Source of the DNA: a virus
UHGV virus genome: UHGV-0142834
Direction: 5' to 3' (one strand)
DNA length: 13,224 nucleotides
Shown here: in pieces, positions 5,061 through 13,172 of the stretch
Numbering within the stretch: position 1 is the stretch's first letter
Layout: each line of letters begins with the position of its first letter
Program-made: the position numbers and the translations under genes
The notes under the pieces: model-generated
The model's input: only the letters and a program-made list of their open reading frames with translations
Databases searched by the model: none
Told to the model about the DNA's origin: nothing

Positions 5061-5543
5061 TTATTTGATAAGAAGTGAAGGTTTCCCAACCTTGAGTTGA
5101 GCGCCTGGGATATTTATTCCTGCTTTTAGTTGGTGCTTGATTGCCAACTTGTCGGCTTTAATTGTCGTTTCAAACTCAACGTATTCAGGAGGAAGGGCGC
5201 TTGAGTCGATGATTTCTACAGTTTCTGACGGTTTGCGGATTGTTACCTGGTGAATACCTGCTCTAATCTTTTTCTTGCCAACCATTTCAAGCGATGACGC
5301 TATATATGATTTGATGCTGTCAATCTTATTTTGAATTACTGCGGCTCGCTCATTCAGTGACTTTGCCTCTTCCTTGAGGCGTTCAGCATAACCAGATTCA
5401 TTTTTAATAATGGAAAGAAGTTGCTCTATTTTATCGATAAATTCTCCTTCCATGCCTTCTATTGTGTCAGCAATCATCTCTGGCTCTAAATCTGAATCCA
5501 TCAATTTTGCGTATTCATTGGCAATTTCATACAGTTTGCTCAC
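5061..5543 (-). CDS. Siphovirus Gp157-family protein, a recombination-module accessory protein
   Basis: Track ORF begins at a TTG placed directly after GGAGG, which is implausible. The GTG at 5543..5541 has GGAGG at a 6-nt spacer, giving a 160-aa product. N-terminal LYEIANEYAKLMDSD.. and C-terminal ..PPEY...IPGAQLKVGKPSLLIK match my recollection of the Gp157 family pattern; it sits directly downstream of recT. Confidence 0.6.
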   Translation of the reverse strand: MSKLYEIANEYAKLMDSDLEPEMIADTIEGMEGEFIDKIEQLLSIIKNESGYAERLKEEAKSLNERAAVIQNKIDSIKSYIASSLEMVGKKKIRAGIHQVTIRKPSETVEIIDSSALPPEYVEFETTIKADKLAIKHQLKAGINIPGAQLKVGKPSLLIK

Positions 5544-6429
5544 TGGCAACCTCCAGTTTCGCTTTGCATTCTGCGTAAATGGCTTGTACGTTCTGCTGCA
5601 ATTTCATTCCAGATGTCAGGCGATATGCTTCTGCAAAATATCGCTTCAAATCATCCATGTTTTCTGCCTGAGCCATTTCATCACAAAGAAGTTGTGCTTT
5701 TTCCATAATTTCCTGCTGGCGTTTCCGTTCATCTTCGCGGATATCTTCCTCTGATTTGTGCGGCATAACTGGTTCCTGATGCATACCTTCATCTTCGTTA
5801 AGCAGGTGAATGGCATTATCCAGTCGCTGGGCTTTAGGCCAGTATTTGCTGGCGCGTTTAACTATTGTTTTACGCGCCATCTCTTCCCAGAATGTCTTCC
5901 ACGGTCCATTCTTTGCCTTGCTCGTTGCTTCCACAGCTTTAATTTCTGCCAGACTCATTTCTTCAGTGAGGTAGTCACCATCTGCTGTTTTAACCGTACA
6001 ATAACCACCAACAATAGAGCCTCGCTCACCAAATGCGTTGTATTTGTGGGTTGGTGCTGAATCAAGGCCGTTTGATTCATAGGTGTCGTTTGAGTACACC
6101 AGTTTGCATTGCCCCCACTTAATTGATCCTGTCGACTGTGCAAGGTGAAGTAATCCCATATAGCTGATATCAAGGCAAACCATGCCGTCGCGCGGAACTA
6201 GATAAGCAAGTTTGCTGGCCGGGTTTAAGGTGATGCCGATCGCCGCAACATTGATGATGGCGTTCTGTGCGCTGGTTGGATTTGCCAGTGCCGTTTTAGC
6301 CAGGTAATCGTTTTTCTGGAAATACTGAATTGCAAACTGGCTTTCCTTAGCCCATGTCACCGTCTGTTCAGTCAATGCTCCGCAGAATAACTGCTCCTGC
6401 TGTTTAACGAATTCAACGATATTGCTCAT
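5527..6429 (-). CDS. recT: RecT-family single-strand annealing recombinase
   Basis: 300 aa, ATG at 6429 with GGAG at an 8-nt spacer. The motif NGPWKTFWEEMARKTIVKRASKYWP closely parallels Rac RecT NGPWVTHWEEMAKKTAIRRLFKYLP. The ATG overlaps the upstream gene's TGA (ATGA). Confidence 0.85.
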   Translation of the reverse strand: MSNIVEFVKQQEQLFCGALTEQTVTWAKESQFAIQYFQKNDYLAKTALANPTSAQNAIINVAAIGITLNPASKLAYLVPRDGMVCLDISYMGLLHLAQSTGSIKWGQCKLVYSNDTYESNGLDSAPTHKYNAFGERGSIVGGYCTVKTADGDYLTEEMSLAEIKAVEATSKAKNGPWKTFWEEMARKTIVKRASKYWPKAQRLDNAIHLLNEDEGMHQEPVMPHKSEEDIREDERKRQQEIMEKAQLLCDEMAQAENMDDLKRYFAEAYRLTSGMKLQQNVQAIYAECKAKLEVASEQTV

Positions 6430-7717: not shown

Positions 7718-8341
7718 CTATGCGGCCTCGGAAGGAAGTCCAATCATCTTATTCAAATCTTCTACCCGTAAAGCAGGAAGTGCTGTACTTGCTTTATCTG
7801 CTTCTTTTGGTAGCAATTCTTTGCTTTCAGGCCAAACTTCAATAAGTCGCTTAACTGTTGTGACTGAGTTCAAAGCACCCCATACATTTGATTCGATATC
7901 CTTTTTCAAGGCTTCAAGGTTTTGTTGCAATGCGCAGATTTCATCAAACCTTTTTGTTATTTCGTGTTCTGCGTCAAACATGCACTTATCTTTGGTTGGA
8001 GTAGGGAGAAATATATCTTCGCCATTGCCGTCTTTCCCATATGAATGCCATCCAACCCTTCTGCCAGATACAGTCAGATAAATTGAAGTAGAACGAAAAT
8101 CGTATGAGTAAAATGAACATCCCATCTTTTCAAGTTCTTCACTTATAGCTACCAACTTGGATGATAACTGATCCACTTCCTCAGTTTTCTTTTTACCGCC
8201 AAACGCAATAACTCTGGCGTCAAGTGCAAGCTGGTTCTTTAACTTTGTTACTTCTTCAAGTTCAGTGAAAACCCCAGACTTAATTAAAGCGTTACGAGCG
8301 ATTTCCTCTTTCATTCTCGTAGTTAAGCGGATTGATGACAT
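7718..8341 (-). CDS. Hypothetical protein (207 aa), accessory cassette gene 1
   Basis: Start placed at the ATG 8341..8339 (MSSIRLTTRMKEE..) preceded by GAGAGG with a 7-nt spacer; the track's longer ORF would overlap the end of N. Coiled-coil-like N-terminal half; no motif I recognise. Confidence 0.65.
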   Translation of the reverse strand: MSSIRLTTRMKEEIARNALIKSGVFTELEEVTKLKNQLALDARVIAFGGKKKTEEVDQLSSKLVAISEELEKMGCSFYSYDFRSTSIYLTVSGRRVGWHSYGKDGNGEDIFLPTPTKDKCMFDAEHEITKRFDEICALQQNLEALKKDIESNVWGALNSVTTVKRLIEVWPESKELLPKEADKASTALPALRVEDLNKMIGLPSEAA

Positions 8342-8352
8342 ATTAATTCCTC

Positions 8353-8679
8353 TCAAATAAGTGGTTTGCTGCCTAATTTCATTTTCTGGCGACCAACACA
8401 AGTCACACCCATTTCACTGCGTGGCTTGCTGTACCATGTGCGCTGATTCTTGCGCTCAATACGTTGCAGGTTGCTTTCAATCTGTTCGTGGTATTCAGCC
8501 AGCACCGTAAGGTCTATCGGATTCAGTGCGCTTTCTACTCGTGATTTCGGTTTGCGATTCAGCGAGAGAATAGGGCGGTTAACTGGTTTTGCGCTTACCC
8601 CAACCAACAGGGGATTTGCTGCTTTCCATTGAGCCTGTTTCTCTGCGCGACGTTCGCGGCGGCGTGTTTGTGCATCCAT
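8353..8679 (-). CDS. N: Antitermination protein N (lambda N-like)
   Basis: Start at the ATG 8679..8677 with AGGAG at a 7-nt spacer. MDAQTRRRERRAEKQAQWKAANPLLVGVSAKPVNRPILSLNRKPKSRVESALNPIDLTVLAEYH.. matches the lambda N arginine-rich motif and most of the protein as I recall it; the C-terminus diverges. Confidence 0.9.
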   Translation of the reverse strand: MDAQTRRRERRAEKQAQWKAANPLLVGVSAKPVNRPILSLNRKPKSRVESALNPIDLTVLAEYHEQIESNLQRIERKNQRTWYSKPRSEMGVTCVGRQKMKLGSKPLI

Positions 8680-8851
8680 CTGGATTCTCCTGTCAGTTAG
8701 CTTTGGTGGTGTGGTAGGTGGGAGACCCATTTCGACCTGCTTCGGCCGACTTCAATTCGGCAATAGTTCCGCAGGCCTCGCCGCTTTACGTGCGACATAT
8801 TCCCATCCATGAACCCTTCACCACACCCCAAAGCCTTCTGCTTTGAATGCT

Positions 8852-8882
8852 GCCCTTCTTCAGGGCTTAATTTTTAAGAGCG
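8852..8882 (-). promoter_or_regulatory. nutL: nutL site (boxA CGCTCTTAA and boxB GCCCTGAAGAAGGGC on the minus strand)
   Basis: Plus strand reads gcccttcttcagggc (8852..8866) and ttaagagcg (8874..8882), the reverse complements of lambda nutL boxB and boxA. Located between pL and N. Confidence 0.85.
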
Positions 8883-8922
8883 TCACCTTCATGGTGGTCA
8901 GTGCGTCCTGCTGATGGCTTAA

Positions 8923-8963
8923 AATATACCTACAGGTAAAACCCATGTCTATACCTGTAGGTA
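8923..8963 (-). promoter_or_regulatory. pL-like promoter with two overlapping dyad operators (OL)
   Basis: On the minus strand: -35 TAGACA (8946..8951), 17-bp spacer, -10 TATATT (8923..8928). Dyad operators TACCTACAGGTA (8927..8938) and TACCTGTAGGTA (8952..8963) overlap the -10 and -35. A third, split dyad TTACCTG-N10-CAGGTAA lies at 8984..9007. Confidence 0.5.
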
Positions 8964-9020
8964 AATAAAATTGATGTGAGAGTTTACCTGCTTGAATTTT
9001 CAGGTAATTAATTTTTTGGA

Positions 9021-9049
9021 TTGATATAAAAAAGCCCGCTTTGCGGGCT
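9021..9049 (-). terminator. Intrinsic terminator ending the cI-membrane protein transcript
   Basis: GC hairpin AGCCCGC-ttt-GCGGGCT (9033..9049) followed on the minus strand by TTTTTTTATAT. It sits 12 nt downstream of the membrane-protein stop at 9061. Confidence 0.7.
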
Positions 9050-9060
9050 GAAAGGAGATG

Positions 9061-9357
9061 TCAGAAGCTATTTGGATTGCTTGGCCATTGCGGCAATTTT
9101 GATTCTACTGGGGTGTGTTTGGGTTTGAGTCCGTTTAAGTAGTCAAGGCGCTCAATGGCGCATTTATACATAGCAATCTGCTCTGATGACATGTCGTCGT
9201 ATGACATGCCTTTGAACTTTTTAATTATCGATTCTGCCTCATGTATAAGATTCTTCTTCCTCATGAGTTCAGCTGTATGCTTAGAGCTTACAGGAGATAA
9301 CTTTGCCCATATGAAGCAGATGATTACAACAGCGACTACTATGCCGGGTATAAACAT
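9061..9357 (-). CDS. Small single-pass membrane protein downstream of cI (rexB/sie slot); candidate superinfection-exclusion or defense protein
   Basis: ATG at 9357 gives a 98-aa product starting MFIPGIVVAVVIICFIWAKL (TM helix) followed by a charged soluble tail. An alternative TTG at 9375 overlaps the cI stop. Co-transcribed with cI and followed by a strong terminator. Confidence 0.6.
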   Translation of the reverse strand: MFIPGIVVAVVIICFIWAKLSPVSSKHTAELMRKKNLIHEAESIIKKFKGMSYDDMSSEQIAMYKCAIERLDYLNGLKPKHTPVESKLPQWPSNPNSF

Positions 9358-9371
9358 TTGCTGCTTTATCC

Positions 9372-10058
9372 TCAAACTTTTGGCAGATCGTCCTGGTCTA
9401 CGTACCTGGTGTGTTTCACAATAGCTGAAACAAAATGCATTTTATCAACTTCTTCAACAGGAAGAGTGATTGGGCGGTGATCACTGTTTATGCTACTAAA
9501 CTGATAATCACCGTCTCTTGTTTTGTTCATGATCTTTATCATGTTGTGACCGTCTTTGGTCCTTACAAAGACTTCATCACCTGGATGTACTGGCGTATTT
9601 GGTTCAATAACAACATATTCTCCTGACTGAATCCTTGGCCACATGCTGTCACCCTTAACCTTCAGACCGTAAGCATCTTTATCGCCGCTGTAGATGCTTA
9701 ACCAACCGGATCTGAATTCAATCATATCCACTGAGCCATCAACTCCCAAAACGGCTTCACCAATTACCGGAACAAAACCCGCACGAACGTTACCCGCAAA
9801 CTCAAGATGGTCCGTAGCTCCAGCTTTACCATCTGCAAGCATGTCCATCCATCCGCGTGGGAGATTAAAAGATTTTTCAATTAGTTCCATCATATCGTCA
9901 GCAATGCGTTTTTTTCCGCTTTTTCCTTCCGGATACAGCATTCTGGAAACGTATGATGGTTCCCTTTCTATTCGACGAGCCAACTCTGAGGCCTTTCCAT
10001 TACAGAATCGGTCTCTTATCTCTATCAGCCTTAGTCGTCTTTGTTCGTATTTATCCAT
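9372..10058 (-). CDS. cI: CI-type prophage repressor (N-terminal HTH, C-terminal LexA-like S24 peptidase domain)
   Basis: 228 aa, ATG at 10058. HTH region NGKASELARRIEREPSYVSRML. C-terminal KVKGDSMWPRIQSGEYVVIEP..GDEVFVRTKDGHNMIKIM contains the S24 Ser/Lys dyad context. Divergent from cro with operators between them. Confidence 0.9.
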   Translation of the reverse strand: MDKYEQRRLRLIEIRDRFCNGKASELARRIEREPSYVSRMLYPEGKSGKKRIADDMMELIEKSFNLPRGWMDMLADGKAGATDHLEFAGNVRAGFVPVIGEAVLGVDGSVDMIEFRSGWLSIYSGDKDAYGLKVKGDSMWPRIQSGEYVVIEPNTPVHPGDEVFVRTKDGHNMIKIMNKTRDGDYQFSSINSDHRPITLPVEEVDKMHFVSAIVKHTRYVDQDDLPKV

Positions 10059-10064
10059 GATTTA

Positions 10065-10134
10065 ATTCTATCTTTGATTACCTGCCGGTAAATAACCTAT
10101 GGGTATTGATTTGCTTTTTACCTACAGGTAAACT
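10065..10134. promoter_or_regulatory. OR region: divergent pRM/pR promoters with dyad operators
   Basis: Operators TTACCTGCCGGTAA (10078..10091) and TACCTACAGGTA (10119..10130), with a weaker AACCTATGGGTA between them. Candidate pR: -35 TTGATT (10106..10111), 17-bp spacer, -10 TAAACT (10129..10134). Candidate pRM -10 TAGAAT on the minus strand (10065..10070), only about 7 nt from the cI ATG with no Shine-Dalgarno sequence, implying a leaderless cI mRNA. Confidence 0.5.
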
Positions 10135-10166
10135 CATCTTATTCAACAACGGGAAGGAGATAGCAA

Positions 10167-10397
10167 ATGGAAGAACTCCGCTTGTATCTGAACTCCCTTT
10201 CACTGGAAGAGCAGAGAGAATTTGCCACCAAGTGCGGAACTTCTATCGGCTATTTGAGGAAAGCACTTAGCCGTAATCATGAATTGGGCGCAGCACTTTG
10301 TGTTCTGATTGAGAAGTTCAGCAATGGTGAAGTGACTCGCAAAGACCTTCATCCGGTTGATTGGGAAAGCATCTGGCCTGAATTAATGGCCGCTTAA
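10167..10397 (+). CDS. cro: Cro-like HTH transcriptional regulator
   Basis: 76 aa, ATG at 10167 with AGGAG at a 7-nt spacer. HTH-like segment EFATKCGTSIGYLRKALS. It is the first rightward gene, divergent from cI. Confidence 0.7.
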   Translation: MEELRLYLNSLSLEEQREFATKCGTSIGYLRKALSRNHELGAALCVLIEKFSNGEVTRKDLHPVDWESIWPELMAA

Positions 10398-10405
10398 GTT
10401 ATTAA

Positions 10406-10437
10406 CGCTCTTACACATCCCCGCCCTGAAAAAGGGC
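10406..10437 (+). promoter_or_regulatory. nutR: nutR site (boxA CGCTCTTAC, boxB GCCCTGAAAAAGGGC)
   Basis: cgctcttac at 10406..10414 and gccctgaaaaagggc at 10423..10437, matching lambda nutR as I recall it. Located between cro and cII. Confidence 0.85.
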
Positions 10438-10513
10438 ATTACCAGAAACAAATCTCTATGGTTTTGCGTTTCTTTGCGAAGCCAACTCTATCTAATCATT
10501 AAGGAAATTATCT

Positions 10514-10795
10514 ATGGGTACTATTGCAACTAAAAGCAAGAAAGCGGCTCGCATCGAGTCAGCCTTGCTGAACAAACTGGCACTGATGGGGCAGAAGACA
10601 TTCGCTCGAGCAATGGGGGTTCCTGAATATCAGGTAAGCCGATGGAAGAATGGTTTCTTCTCGCAGGTAAGCATGATGCTGGCTGTTCTGGAATACGGAA
10701 TCGAAGACGATGAAATGGCTGAGCTGACTAAGCGGCTTGCCAATTACCTGACAAAAGAAAAAGCCCCGAAGAACGGCGAATTCTTCGAGGCCTGA
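10514..10795 (+). CDS. cII: CII transcriptional activator (lambda CII-like)
   Basis: 93 aa. RIESALLNKLALMGQKTFARAMGVPEYQVSRWKNGFFSQVSMMLAVLEYGIEDDEMAELTKRLANYL parallels lambda CII RIESALLNKIAMLGTEKTAEAVGVDKSQISRWKRDWIPKFSMLLAVLEWGVVDDDMARLARQVAAIL. Confidence 0.85.
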   Translation: MGTIATKSKKAARIESALLNKLALMGQKTFARAMGVPEYQVSRWKNGFFSQVSMMLAVLEYGIEDDEMAELTKRLANYLTKEKAPKNGEFFEA

Positions 10796-10820
10796 TGTAG
10801 AAAGACTGGATCAATCCACA
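10751..10820 (-). ncRNA. OOP-like antisense RNA candidate (pO-like promoter, terminator inside the cII 3' end)
   Basis: Minus-strand hairpin GCCTCGAAG-aattcgccgtt-CTTCGGGGC (10763..10791 on +, one mismatch) followed by TTTTTCTTTT (10751..10762). A candidate extended -10 TGtCATAAT on the minus strand at about 10827..10835 places the start near 10820. The geometry matches lambda oop; the 5' end is an estimate. Confidence 0.4.
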
Positions 10821-10829
10821 GGAGTAATT

Positions 10830-10991
10830 ATGACAAAACGTCGTAAGAAATACCAGGAAAAAGAAGAGATTCGACACCCTGATTCACCTGAGGGATTAGT
10901 GGTAGCCGCAGCAAATAACAGGGCGTTCGCAGAGCGCCTTGTTGGTGTTTACAGACTAGCCAAAGCAGGAGTGAAACATGGGCGTCGTTAA
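10830..10991 (+). CDS. Possible small basic ORF (53 aa) between cII and O
   Basis: Hand-translated: [57 protein letters not shown] at a 6-nt spacer before the ATG. Overlaps the O start by 14 nt and the proposed pO -10, so it may be non-coding. Confidence 0.25.
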   Translation: MTKRRKKYQEKEEIRHPDSPEGLVVAAANNRAFAERLVGVYRLAKAGVKHGRR

Positions 10992-11799
10992 GTTAGCTGA
11001 TTACAGGCCTCAACTGGAGGTCGTGGAGCATCGCGTGGCAGATACCGAAGATGGTTTCATGCGCGTTGCTAACGAGATTACTGACAGTCTGCTGATGGCT
11101 GATTTAACCGTCCGGCAGTTGAAGGTGATGCTCGCTATCATGCGCAAGACATACGGATTCAATAAGCCGATGGATCGACTCACAAACACGCAGATAGCAG
11201 CCATGACAGGTATTCATCACACTCATGTTTGCGCTGCCAAGCGCCAGCTTATCGAGCGTAAATTCCTCATTGCTGATGGCGTGAAAATCGGAGTGAACAA
11301 GGTGGTTTCTCAGTGGATTAGCCAGGACAGCTTAACATTAGCTAAAACAGCTAATAAAACATTAGCCAAGTCGGCTAATGGGTATAAGCCAAGTCAGCTA
11401 AACACAAAAGACAATATACAAAAGACAATAAATACAAATACCCCCTTACCCCCTAACGGGGGTGGCGATGGGCAGGTTAAACCTGAACGTCGCAAGGCAG
11501 AACGAATCGACTACGAATCCTTCCTGAACGCCTACAACACCGAAGTCGGTGACAGACTGCCACACGCTGTTGCGGTCAACGAGAAACGCAAACGCCGCCT
11601 GAAGAAAATCATCCCGCAACTGAAAACGCCAAACGTGGACGGTTTCAGAGCGTATGTCAGGGCGTTTGTGCATCAGGCCAAGCCGTTTTACTTCGGAGAC
11701 AACGACACGGGCTGGACAGCTGATTTTGATTACCTGCTGAGGGAAGATTCGTTAACGGGAGTACGGGAAGGGAAGTTTGCAGACAGGGGGATTGCATGA
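10978..11799 (+). CDS. O: Replication initiation protein, lambda O-like N-terminal domain
   Basis: 273 aa, ATG at 10978 with AGGAG at a 7-nt spacer. [53 protein letters not shown] parallels lambda O N-domain ..ADLTKRQFKVLLAILRKTYGWNKPMDRITDSQLSEIT. Contains internal iterons. Confidence 0.85.
11318..11445. repeat. Candidate replication origin: four 17-18 bp iterons with internal dyad symmetry followed by an A-rich tract, inside the O gene
   Basis: ttagccaggacagcttaa (11318..11335), ttagctaaaacagctaa (11338..11354), ttagccaagtcggctaa (11362..11378), taagccaagtcagctaa (11385..11401), then acacaaaagacaatatacaaaagacaataaatacaaata. Same layout as ori-lambda within O. Confidence 0.6.
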
Positions 11800-13172
11800 A
11801 ACAGGATATCGAAGCGAGCGTTATCGGTGGCCTGCTGATTGGTGGATTAACACCAACTGCCAGTGACGTTCTGGCAACGCTTGAGCCGGAAGCGTTTTCA
11901 ATTCCGCTCTACCGGAAAGCCTTCGAGGTTATCCGCAAGCAGGCGCGAAACAGAAATTTAATCGACGCGCTGATGGTTGCCGAGGCGTGCGGAGAGGAGC
12001 ATTTCACGTCAATCCTGATGACCAGCAAAAACTGCCCGAGTTCCGCAAACCTGAAGGGATATGCCGGAATGGTCGCGGATAACTATCACCGCCGTCTGGT
12101 GCTGGAAATCATGGATGAAATGCGTGAACCAATTCAGAGCGGAACCATCGACGCATCGAGTCAGGCGATGGATGAACTTGTAAAGCGTCTTTCAGCCATC
12201 AGAAAGCCCCGTGACGAGGTTAAACCTGTACGGTTAGGGGAAATCATAACTGACTACACTGACATGCTTGACAGGCGTCTGAGGAACGGAGAAGAGTCAG
12301 ATACCCTGAAGACCGGAATCGAAGAACTTGATGCTATCACCGGAGGGATGAACGCGGAAGACCTGGTGATAATAGCTGCTCGTCCTGGTATGGGGAAAAC
12401 CGAACTGGCGCTGAAGATTGCCGAAGGCGTTGCAAGCCGTGTTATTCCTGGTTCTGACGTCCGGCGCGGAGTGTTGATTTTCTCGATGGAAATGAGCGCA
12501 TTGCAGATTGCAGAGCGAAGCATTGCCAACGCCGGGAGGATGTCGGTTAGCGTGCTACGAAATCCTGCATCGATGGATGACGAAGGCTGGGCGCGCGTTG
12601 CTAACGGCATGAATCAGCTTGCGGATTTGGATGTATGGGTAGTCGATGCATCGCGGTTATCGGTCGAAGAAATACGCTCAATCGCAGAACGGCACAAACA
12701 GGAAAATCCAAACCTGTCACTCATCATGGCGGATTATCTTGGCCTGATTGAGAAGCCGAAAGCAGACCGCAACGACCTCGCAATTGCTCACATCTCAGGA
12801 AGCCTTAAGGCGATGGCGAAAGACCTGAAAACGCCTGTTATCTCCCTAAGTCAGCTTTCGCGCGATGTTGAGAAGCGACCAAACAAACGCCCGACAAACG
12901 CAGATTTGCGTGATTCAGGAAGCATTGAACAGGACGCAGACTCAATCATCATGCTCTATAGGGAAGCGGTATATGACGAGAACAGTAGCGCCGCGCCATT
13001 TGCTGAAATCATCGTGACGAAAAACCGTTTTGGCTCGCTTGGTACGGTTTACCAGCGGTTCTGCAACGGACACTTTGTTGCATGTGACCAGGATGAAGCC
13101 AGACAGATTTGCACAGCATCAAATGCACCCGCTGCACGTGGCAGGCGATATGCACAAGGGGCTGACGTATGA
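11796..13172 (+). CDS. Replicative DNA helicase, DnaB family (phage-encoded)
   Basis: 458 aa. The ATG overlaps the O stop (ATGA). Walker A context [18 protein letters not shown]. Downstream DnaB-like motifs ([38 protein letters not shown]). Confidence 0.9.

Follow-up and report, generated by a model that had tools for sequence, protein, structure and literature searches.

Which immunity specificity does the lambdoid control region of the UHGV virus genome UHGV-0142834 carry, and how closely does this region follow the layout of phage lambda? The window analysed here (the whole stretch of 13,224 nucleotides, nt) contains, between position 8852 (the first base of nutL boxB) and position 10437 (the last base of nutR boxB), a set of control elements whose order was established by sequence reading together with a list of open reading frames (ORFs). 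On the minus strand it runs through N, nutL, the left promoter and operators (pL/OL), a small ORF and the repressor gene cI, and on the plus strand through cro, nutR and cII, which is the gene order of lambda itself (N-nutL-pL/OL-accessory-cI-OR-cro-nutR-cII, OR being the right operators). We conclude that the region very probably governs lysis and lysogeny (immunity) in a lambdoid prophage, and that it consists of the immunity cassette of phage mEp043 (OL/pL, a small accessory ORF, cI, OR and cro) placed between lambda-type N/nutL and nutR. The cassette is already known, and the mosaic is an ordinary one that reflects the textbook modular exchange of lambdoid phages.

Identity and boundaries of the immunity cassette

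A megablast comparison of a 2.6-kb query against ~50,700 phage genomes identified mEp043 at 98.9% identity over 92% of the query, with an ungapped block (8816-10839) of 98.8% DNA identity and 25 substitutions. The CI and Cro proteins are 100% identical to those of mEp043 and no operator half-site differs, which assigns the cassette to the mEp043 immunity group. In mEp043 (JQ182734 / NC_019706 / PV340537), OL1, OR1, OR2, OR3, pL, pR and pRM are likewise identical to those of the window, the only operator difference being the free central base of OL2, and N is 98.7% identical at the DNA level, whereas the left-arm genes and the replication module differ. Among deposited phages, the CI DNA-binding domain is found at 99% identity or more only in the three mEp043 records. 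In the chromosome of E. coli MB19 the cassette is 100% identical, with the match limited to 8352-11008, and 52 of the 5,426 complete E. coli genomes contain 80% or more of the cassette. Phage mEp043 comes from the collection of Kameyama et al. 1999, which was chosen to represent distinct immunity groups, and it forms a group of its own (PMC9836094, PMC3442831), separate from that of lambda (PMC3442831). No publication describing the mEp043 operators was found in the literature searchable here.

The antitermination sequences on either side of the cassette are those of lambda, as the initial annotation of this region, made from the letters alone, had stated. N is identical to lambda N at 98 of 108 residues, including all of residues 1-64 with the arginine-rich boxB-binding motif. 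Alignment to NC_001416 showed that the sequence from the pL start through nutL is lambda's base for base, the 5′ end of the lambda pL transcript being matched exactly at 8874-8915. The boxA sequence CGCTCTTA and the boxB hairpin GCCCTGAARAAGGGC occur once 3′ of pL and once 3′ of cro, and since both N and the nut sites equal those of lambda, the cognate N-boxB pair is lambda's. Between these sites the likeness is lost. The annotated lambda operators are 17 bp long (TATCACCGCCAGTGGTA type) and unrelated in sequence to the 16-bp even dyads of the window, CI has only the S24 protease core in common with lambda CI, its N-terminal domain being without significant similarity, and no similarity could be detected between the two Cro proteins; the specificity is therefore not that of imm-lambda.

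The ends of this foreign segment were located from phages that share the flanks. The heteroimmune phage Sf101 shares the DNA of the window up to 8925 and again from 10389, the likewise heteroimmune vB_EcoP-683R2 up to 8922 and again from 10389, and identity to lambda stops at 8916 (pL position -1). The exchanged unit is thus ~8917/8926-10388; it extends from the pL promoter to a point 9 nt short of the cro stop and leaves both nut sites just outside. Together with the CI and Cro comparisons, this sharing of flanks with heteroimmune phages bears out the earlier proposal that a non-lambda immunity cassette, with operators unlike lambda's, was joined to a lambda-type antitermination system. Elsewhere among lineages with this immunity type, conservation covers roughly the first 13 nt of the pL transcript (ATCAGCAGGACGC) before the sequence diverges, a pattern that would fit recombination at short conserved junctions. 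In the imm434 substitution of lambda, a cassette bounded at pL/OL and at the cro end is exchanged between phages that share N and nut. The window follows the same principle as such imm434-type mosaics with another specificity, its boundaries lying at 8916-8925 and 10389. The features of the region are collected in Table 1.

Table 1 Features of the control region and its flanks in the window
Feature	Position	Strand	Description
N, antitermination gene, lambda type	8353-8679	minus	108 aa; Pfam N36, E=1.5e-26; 91% identical to lambda N
N leader	8680-8848	minus	Long conserved basal stem and variable apical segment at ~8725-8815 (alignment, blastn gaps, RNA folds)
nutL	8849-8882	minus	boxA 8875-8882, boxB 8852-8866; exact 34-nt lambda nutL CGCTCTTAAAAATTAAGCCCTGAAGAAGGGCAGC
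pL	8915-8951	minus	-35 TAGACA 8946-8951, 17-nt spacer, -10 TATATT 8923-8928, +1 8915; scan 10/12
OL1 dyad	8925-8940		TATACCTACAGGTAAA; centre -17.5 from pL +1 (lambda -17)
OL2 dyad	8950-8965		TATACCTGTAGGTAAA; centre -42.5 from pL +1 (lambda -41)
Split dyad	8984-9007		TTACCT-12 nt-AGGTAA; both half-sites perfect; canonical site plus 10 bp; candidate OL3 analogue
Intrinsic terminator of cI operon	9033-9049	minus	7-bp GC-rich stem, then T run
Accessory ORF	9061-9357 (or 9375)	minus	98 aa from ATG (104 aa from upstream TTG); PHROG 10450, E=3.7e-54
cI repressor	9372-10058	minus	228 aa; XRE-type helix-turn-helix N-terminal domain and 933W-like S24 autoprotease C-terminal domain
pRM	10065-10092	minus	-35 TTTACC, 16-nt spacer, -10 TAGAAT; scan 9/12; predicted +1 = A of cI ATG (10058)
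OR3 dyad	10077-10092		ATTACCTGCCGGTAAA; centre -26.5 from pRM +1 (lambda -19); overlaps pRM -35 and spacer
OR2 weak dyad	10092-10107		ATAACCTATGGGTATT; centre -41.5 from pRM +1 (lambda -42); adjoins pR -35
OR1 perfect dyad	10117-10132		TTTACCTACAGGTAAA; centre -66.5 from pRM +1 (lambda -66); overlaps pR spacer and -10
pR	10106-10134	plus	-35 TTGATT, 17-nt spacer, -10 TAAACT; 8/12, just under scan threshold; +1 ~10141
cro	10167-10397	plus	76 aa; canonical AAGGAG Shine-Dalgarno upstream; PHROG 35 transcriptional repressor, E=7.5e-16
nutR	10406-10437	plus	boxA 10406-10413, boxB 10423-10437; both identical to lambda, with 2 spacer differences
cII	10514-10795	plus	Pfam Phage_CII, E=7.6e-30

Operators and promoters

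The operators are 16-bp dyads of the type TTTACCT-NN-AGGTAAA, of which there are five, two at OL and three at OR. A search of the window with the 14-mer TTACCTNNAGGTAA, allowing up to two mismatches, returned four matches against the 0.37 expected in 13.2 kb (none of 200 shuffles reached four), and all of them are confined to the two intergenic promoter regions. Both pL and pRM were called independently by a consensus promoter scan. The +1 of pL was placed by identity with the lambda pL transcript start, and the mEp043 record has a putative PL in the same place. OL1 and OL2 overlap the -10 and -35 of pL and form a second operator cluster, while the tripartite OR1-OR3 (10077-10132) lies between the divergent cI and cro genes and overlaps both pR and pRM, which is the arrangement of a lambdoid switch. 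For the lambda start sites we took positions 35582 (pL), 37940 (pRM) and 38023 (pR), which are consistent with the lambda annotation and sequence. Measured from these starts, the centres of OL1, OL2, OR1 and OR2 match those of lambda within about 1 bp, and OR3, which adjoins OR2 in the window, is the sole site that differs (Table 1).

A further 160 loci were collected with an alignment of two CI N-terminal domains and reduced to 75 unique upstream regions, representing 25 distinct N-terminal-domain lineages (61-100% identity), 20 of them phage-type. All 20 phage-type lineages have three dyads, spaced 25 and 15 bp apart (24 and 15 bp in three lineages). Conservation in these dyads falls on the half-sites TACC[C/T] and [A/G]GGTA, the central two nucleotides and the flanks being free. 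Lineages also agree in the complement of the pR -35 (TCAA), and a pair of OL dyads 25 bp apart is kept in other lineages.

A split dyad next to OL2

The initial annotation had counted three dyads at OR and two to three at OL. The three at OR and two at OL were recovered, but the third OL site is a split dyad and not a canonical one. Canonical OL3 sites at 8984-8999 or 8993-9008 were considered and rejected, as each has only one good half-site. The split dyad lies between the cI-operon terminator and OL2, and its half-sites are separated by 12 nt instead of 2, i.e., by one extra helical turn. It is kept at a fixed offset of 33 bp from OL2 in five unique loci from four divergent repressor lineages (window/L047, L059, L056, L067), with flanks that differ among these loci, and it was not found in the lineages L021, L061 and L062, though these keep OL1 and OL2.

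As a tentative possibility, the split dyad may be a genuine third operator of OL, to which CI would bind in an extended or trans geometry and which would serve OL-OR looping. Its perfect half-sites and the exactly 10 extra bp keep both halves on the same face of the helix, and conservation at a fixed offset in four divergent lineages despite differing flanks points in the same direction, whereas its absence from three lineages that retain OL1 and OL2 speaks against it. The C-terminal-domain relative 933W, moreover, has only two OL sites, and its loop is reported to be without a role at pRM. In favour of a third operator, the repressor SPC32H Rep, a fold relative of the CI N-terminal domain (see below), reportedly pairs N-terminal domains from different dimers, as described by Kim et al. 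in 2016. Somewhat more doubtful still is a broader proposal, in which the split dyad and the abutting OR2 and OR3 would reflect a CI binding mode unlike lambda's (e.g., with N-terminal domains acting in trans, in OL-OR looping or in pRM shut-off) and in which, separately, the TTACC-N4-GGTAA module of N-terminal domain, Cro and operators would be an uncharacterised specificity carried on at least five C-terminal modules, including short ones without the S24 motif.

A probable leaderless cI transcript

On the minus strand the window reads TAGAAT-TAAATC-ATG where lambda reads TAGATT-TAACGT-ATG, so that the -10 hexamer stands 6 nt before the start codon in both, the A of the cI ATG being the seventh base, and no Shine-Dalgarno word was found upstream of cI in the window. 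Lambda pRM is the textbook case of a leaderless transcript. The position of the start codon is fixed by the conserved N-terminus MDKYE of CI. A -10-like hexamer precedes the ATG by 6 nt in 11 phage-type lineages and by 7 nt in eight (19 of 20), with varying bases in between, and Shine-Dalgarno-like words occur upstream of cI in only two lineages, where they overlap the -10. The suggestion in the initial annotation that the cI mRNA lacks a leader is strengthened by this comparison, and good comparative support, short of proof, now exists for a leaderless cI transcript from pRM.

It is unlikely, in our view, that the transcript starts farther upstream or that CI is translated mainly from a pRE transcript, with TAGAAT being incidental. 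The pRM -35 is indeed weak (TTTACC, with a 16-nt spacer), and the TTGC-N6-TTGC site for CII indicates the existence of a leadered, pRE-type transcript as well. A hexamer held 6-7 nt from the ATG in nearly all lineages despite differing bases, and without a usable Shine-Dalgarno, would however be hard to reconcile with such a start, and pRM has the same spacing in the window as in lambda, with OR2 centred at -41.5 from the leaderless start, as in lambda. The leaderless reading would also extend beyond the window, as the start appears to be conserved across the module of N-terminal domain, Cro and operators. As to the sites for CII themselves, a TTGC-N6-TTGC sequence at 10526-10539 on the minus strand, just inside cII, corresponds to the pRE -35 region, and the same cII site is annotated in mEp043. 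A second such sequence (10464-10477, plus strand) lies in the spacer between nutR and cII and aligns with a similar lambda sequence.

Repressor domains and the specificity module

The C-terminal half of CI matches Pfam Peptidase_S24 (E=1.4e-17), Ser138 in its GDSM motif aligns with Ser149 of lambda, and Lys175 would, by its motif, be the S24 catalytic lysine, so that CI has the architecture of a helix-turn-helix (HTH) domain followed by a LexA-like S24 domain. The candidate RecA cleavage sites are Ala-Gly at 88-89 or 93-94 and Leu-Gly at 104-105. For the N-terminal domain Pfam reported no HTH family, and a phmmer search of CI against PDB sequences gave chance-level matches only. An AlphaFold model of this domain, built with 30 homologues, reached a predicted local distance difference test (pLDDT) score of 90.6 and contains helices at 3-18, 23-29, 34-40 and 54-63, of which 23-29/34-40 form the helix-turn-helix, with residues 34-40 (PSYVSRM) as the recognition helix. 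The best PDB match by Foldseek was the Salmonella phage repressor SPC32H Rep (5d50), with a template modelling (TM) score of 0.81, a root-mean-square deviation of 1.3 Å over 72 columns (chain I) and 25-27% identity, followed by C.Esp1396I and other XRE-type HTH proteins. SPC32H Rep is related to CI in its N-terminal domain only and is controlled by an antirepressor, having no S24 domain. Across the family of N-terminal domains, the PSYVSRM helix and the LYPEGK after it show little or no variation.

C-terminal modules of at least five kinds are joined to the N-terminal domain of this family (933W-like S24, a second S24 type, a lambda-CI-like type, other S24 types, and a short 60-aa tail in proteins of 135-139 aa), and the dyads persist in all of them. 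These chimeras were observed at loci L120, L066, L185, L071 and L021 and in proteins P0005-P0023. Three TTACCT-type dyads, with spacings of 24 and 15 bp, accompany a protein of Paraburkholderia xenovorans whose N-terminal domain is of the same type (64% identity). In a genome scan, relatives that share the C-terminal domain of CI but differ in the N-terminal one have other sites, i.e., TTATCA-N3-TGATAA dyads in Erwinia and Pantoea and 933W-like GTAC/GAAC sites in Photorhabdus and Pectobacterium. Since the dyads track the N-terminal domain across C-terminal types, the DNA specificity resides in the N-terminal domain, and since this domain is also found on lambda-CI-like and other S24 domains, the CI of the window is itself a domain chimera. 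Most database proteins with this N-terminal domain are only 131-140 aa long, lack the S24 catalytic motif and have a tail that looks helical by sequence; such short repressors presumably need an antirepressor or another route of induction.

The domain does not travel alone. A Cro homologue (33-76 of 76 residues identical) stands alongside it in 19 of the 20 phage-type lineages, and in the twentieth, L056, the automatic ORF finder took the wrong ORF, the upstream sequence having an MEKL-type start as in L057. The comparative set thus provides unusually clean evidence for a portable specificity module made up of N-terminal domain, Cro and operators. Wherever the dyads occur at phage-type loci, Cro is there too, and its helix IGYLRKA resembles the CI recognition helix SYVSRML to the extent that sequence alone cannot tell them apart, which would suit an explanation in which the dyads are primarily sites for Cro, or for some other factor of the host or the phage, while CI has other targets. 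We consider this very improbable, as the dyads go with the CI N-terminal domain whichever of the five C-terminal types it is joined to, and are found with it at two-dyad loci that have no Cro-like gene. To our knowledge, CI and Cro share the same operators in every lambdoid switch that has been studied, and a Cro-site explanation is therefore not really exclusive of CI binding.

The two-dyad loci (L147, L122, L177, L139, L169, L163 and others) form a class of their own, with 233-aa S24 proteins that have the same N-terminal domain, dyads 40 bp apart around a TTGCTATATTT element, and no Cro-like divergent gene. They are often located on very long (chromosomal) contigs, most have TAGAAT-type hexamers ~7 nt from the ATG, and the class looks like an autoregulated repressor in a non-phage or degenerate context.

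A proposed lambda-like switch with its own recognition code

The closest characterised C-terminal S24 relative of CI is the 933W/phi24B repressor, at 49% identity over residues 11/20-221, with the similarity concentrated in the C-terminal domain. The 933W control region has three OR sites and two canonical OL sites, the same count of canonical sites as the window. Its operators, however, are 15-bp odd dyads of the GAAC/GTAC type with different spacings, and its N-terminal domain is of a different type (PMC3317979); the S41/K42/K46 recognition helix and the 15-bp operators of 933W are not those of the window. Operators of the 933W type were rejected as a model for the dyads, as both sequence and length differ.

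The mechanism proposed below is drawn by analogy with lambda, and its direct basis lies in the identities, motif statistics, promoter and operator geometry, conservation and folds described above. CI dimers would bind the 16-bp dyads through the XRE-type HTH, with the recognition helix at 34-40. Occupancy of OL1/OL2 and of OR1/OR2, each pair being 25 bp apart, would block pL and pR, and CI at the weak OR2 (-41.5) would be placed to activate pRM, as lambda CI does from -42. The position of OR3 over the pRM -35 suggests either negative autoregulation by CI or shut-off by Cro. Transcription from pRM is predicted to start at the A of the cI AUG or 1 nt upstream of it and to give a leaderless mRNA. 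The 933W-like S24 domain would make CI cleavable through the SOS response (RecA), and after derepression the lambda-type N would bind the boxB hairpins of nutL and nutR and antiterminate both early operons. CI binding and its cooperativity, the activation of pRM, the cI mRNA 5′ end and RecA-dependent cleavage are all inferred, and taken together the observations fit a switch built like lambda's that uses another recognition code.

Several points weigh against carrying this analogy with lambda too far. The pR promoter matches the consensus at only 8/12 positions. OR2 is a poor match, two of its 10 core positions being mismatched, and the base at its edge (10092) also belongs to OR3, the two sites being 15 bp apart centre to centre, in an abutment that is conserved. 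Simultaneous occupancy of OR2 and OR3 is uncertain, and with it the lambda-like logic of activation from OR2 and repression from OR3. The conserved distance from the -10 to the ATG is in part the shared ancestry of the loci compared. The 933W repressor reportedly binds without cooperativity (PMC3317979), and cooperativity can therefore not be assumed for CI. No experimental binding, footprint or cI 5′-end data for the cassette were found in the literature searchable here. The non-cooperativity of 933W, the weak OR2 and the abutment of OR2 and OR3 together call for caution over assuming the details of lambda.

The initial annotation had also implied that the specificity was new, and this did not hold: the operators resemble neither those of lambda nor those of 933W, the N-terminal domain of CI has no Pfam family and no paper on these operators came up in the literature searched, but the case for a previously unseen specificity is already refuted at the sequence level and retains next to no probability, as the cassette is ~99% identical to that of mEp043 (with the same CI, Cro and operator half-sites), which was isolated and given its own immunity group in 1999 and whose sequence was deposited in 2012 (PMC9836094, PMC3442831), and as at least 80% of it recurs in the 52 E. 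coli genomes counted above, the cassette being common among E. coli prophages. The comparison with known immunity groups that the annotation had called for thus ended in half-sites identical to those of mEp043, in operators unrelated to lambda's and different from those of 933W/phi24B, and in a cassette that is only mosaic.

The discovery value is accordingly small, since the cassette is already deposited as mEp043 and a heteroimmune cassette with shared N and nut is textbook mosaicism. Its practical value lies in a sequence-level definition of the mEp043-type operator, a promoter and operator map and exact cassette boundaries. All three could help to annotate ~1% of the complete E. coli genomes as well as many prophages of other genera, and homo- and hetero-immunity could be predicted from them. 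What remains of interest is the operator code, the portability of the module, the conserved abutment of OR2 and OR3 and the conserved split dyad.

Neighbouring genes and the wider window

The accessory ORF lies directly 3′ of cI, in the position of lambda rexAB, and has a hydrophobic N-terminus; where lambda has rexAB, the window has this 98-aa ORF. The mEp043 annotation includes it, whereas PGAP left it uncalled in E. coli MB19. Its product differs from that of mEp043 at four residues, against none in CI and Cro.

At the left flank, the first base of nutL boxA (8882) is C in the window, as in the CGCTCTTA of lambda, and T in mEp043, which makes the nutL of the window nearer to lambda than that of its closest relative. 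The apical segment of the N leader (~8725-8815) is unrelated to both lambda and mEp043. Phage CL707 has a single-piece megablast match of 98.3% identity that spans this variable segment. A basal stem in which GGCUUUGGGGUGUG... is paired with ...CACACCACCAAAGCU is common to the leader folds of the window and lambda (z = -3.0 and -3.7, respectively), with unrelated DNA forming the apex, and the folds would fit a basal stem conserved for processing or for translation control, on which the apex can be swapped. Directly 3′ of N in the pL operon, an ORF at 7718-8401 on the minus strand encodes an Nmad5 protein (nucleotide modification associated domain 5, E=3.4e-70), an unusual cargo at a position where lambda has ral/sieB-type genes.

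A scan of the whole window against Rfam families at gathering thresholds gave 0 matches, and among complete E. coli genomes none was found to contain at least 80% of the whole window (best 76%). The left arm is unlike both mEp043 and the MB19 prophage. A tyrosine integrase is encoded at the left end of the window on the plus strand, and a RecT-family recombinase and a Gp157-like protein are present (context features 270-1448, 5527-6429 and 10978-13172). The replication module combines an O-like initiator with a DnaB-type helicase in place of the lambda P loader.

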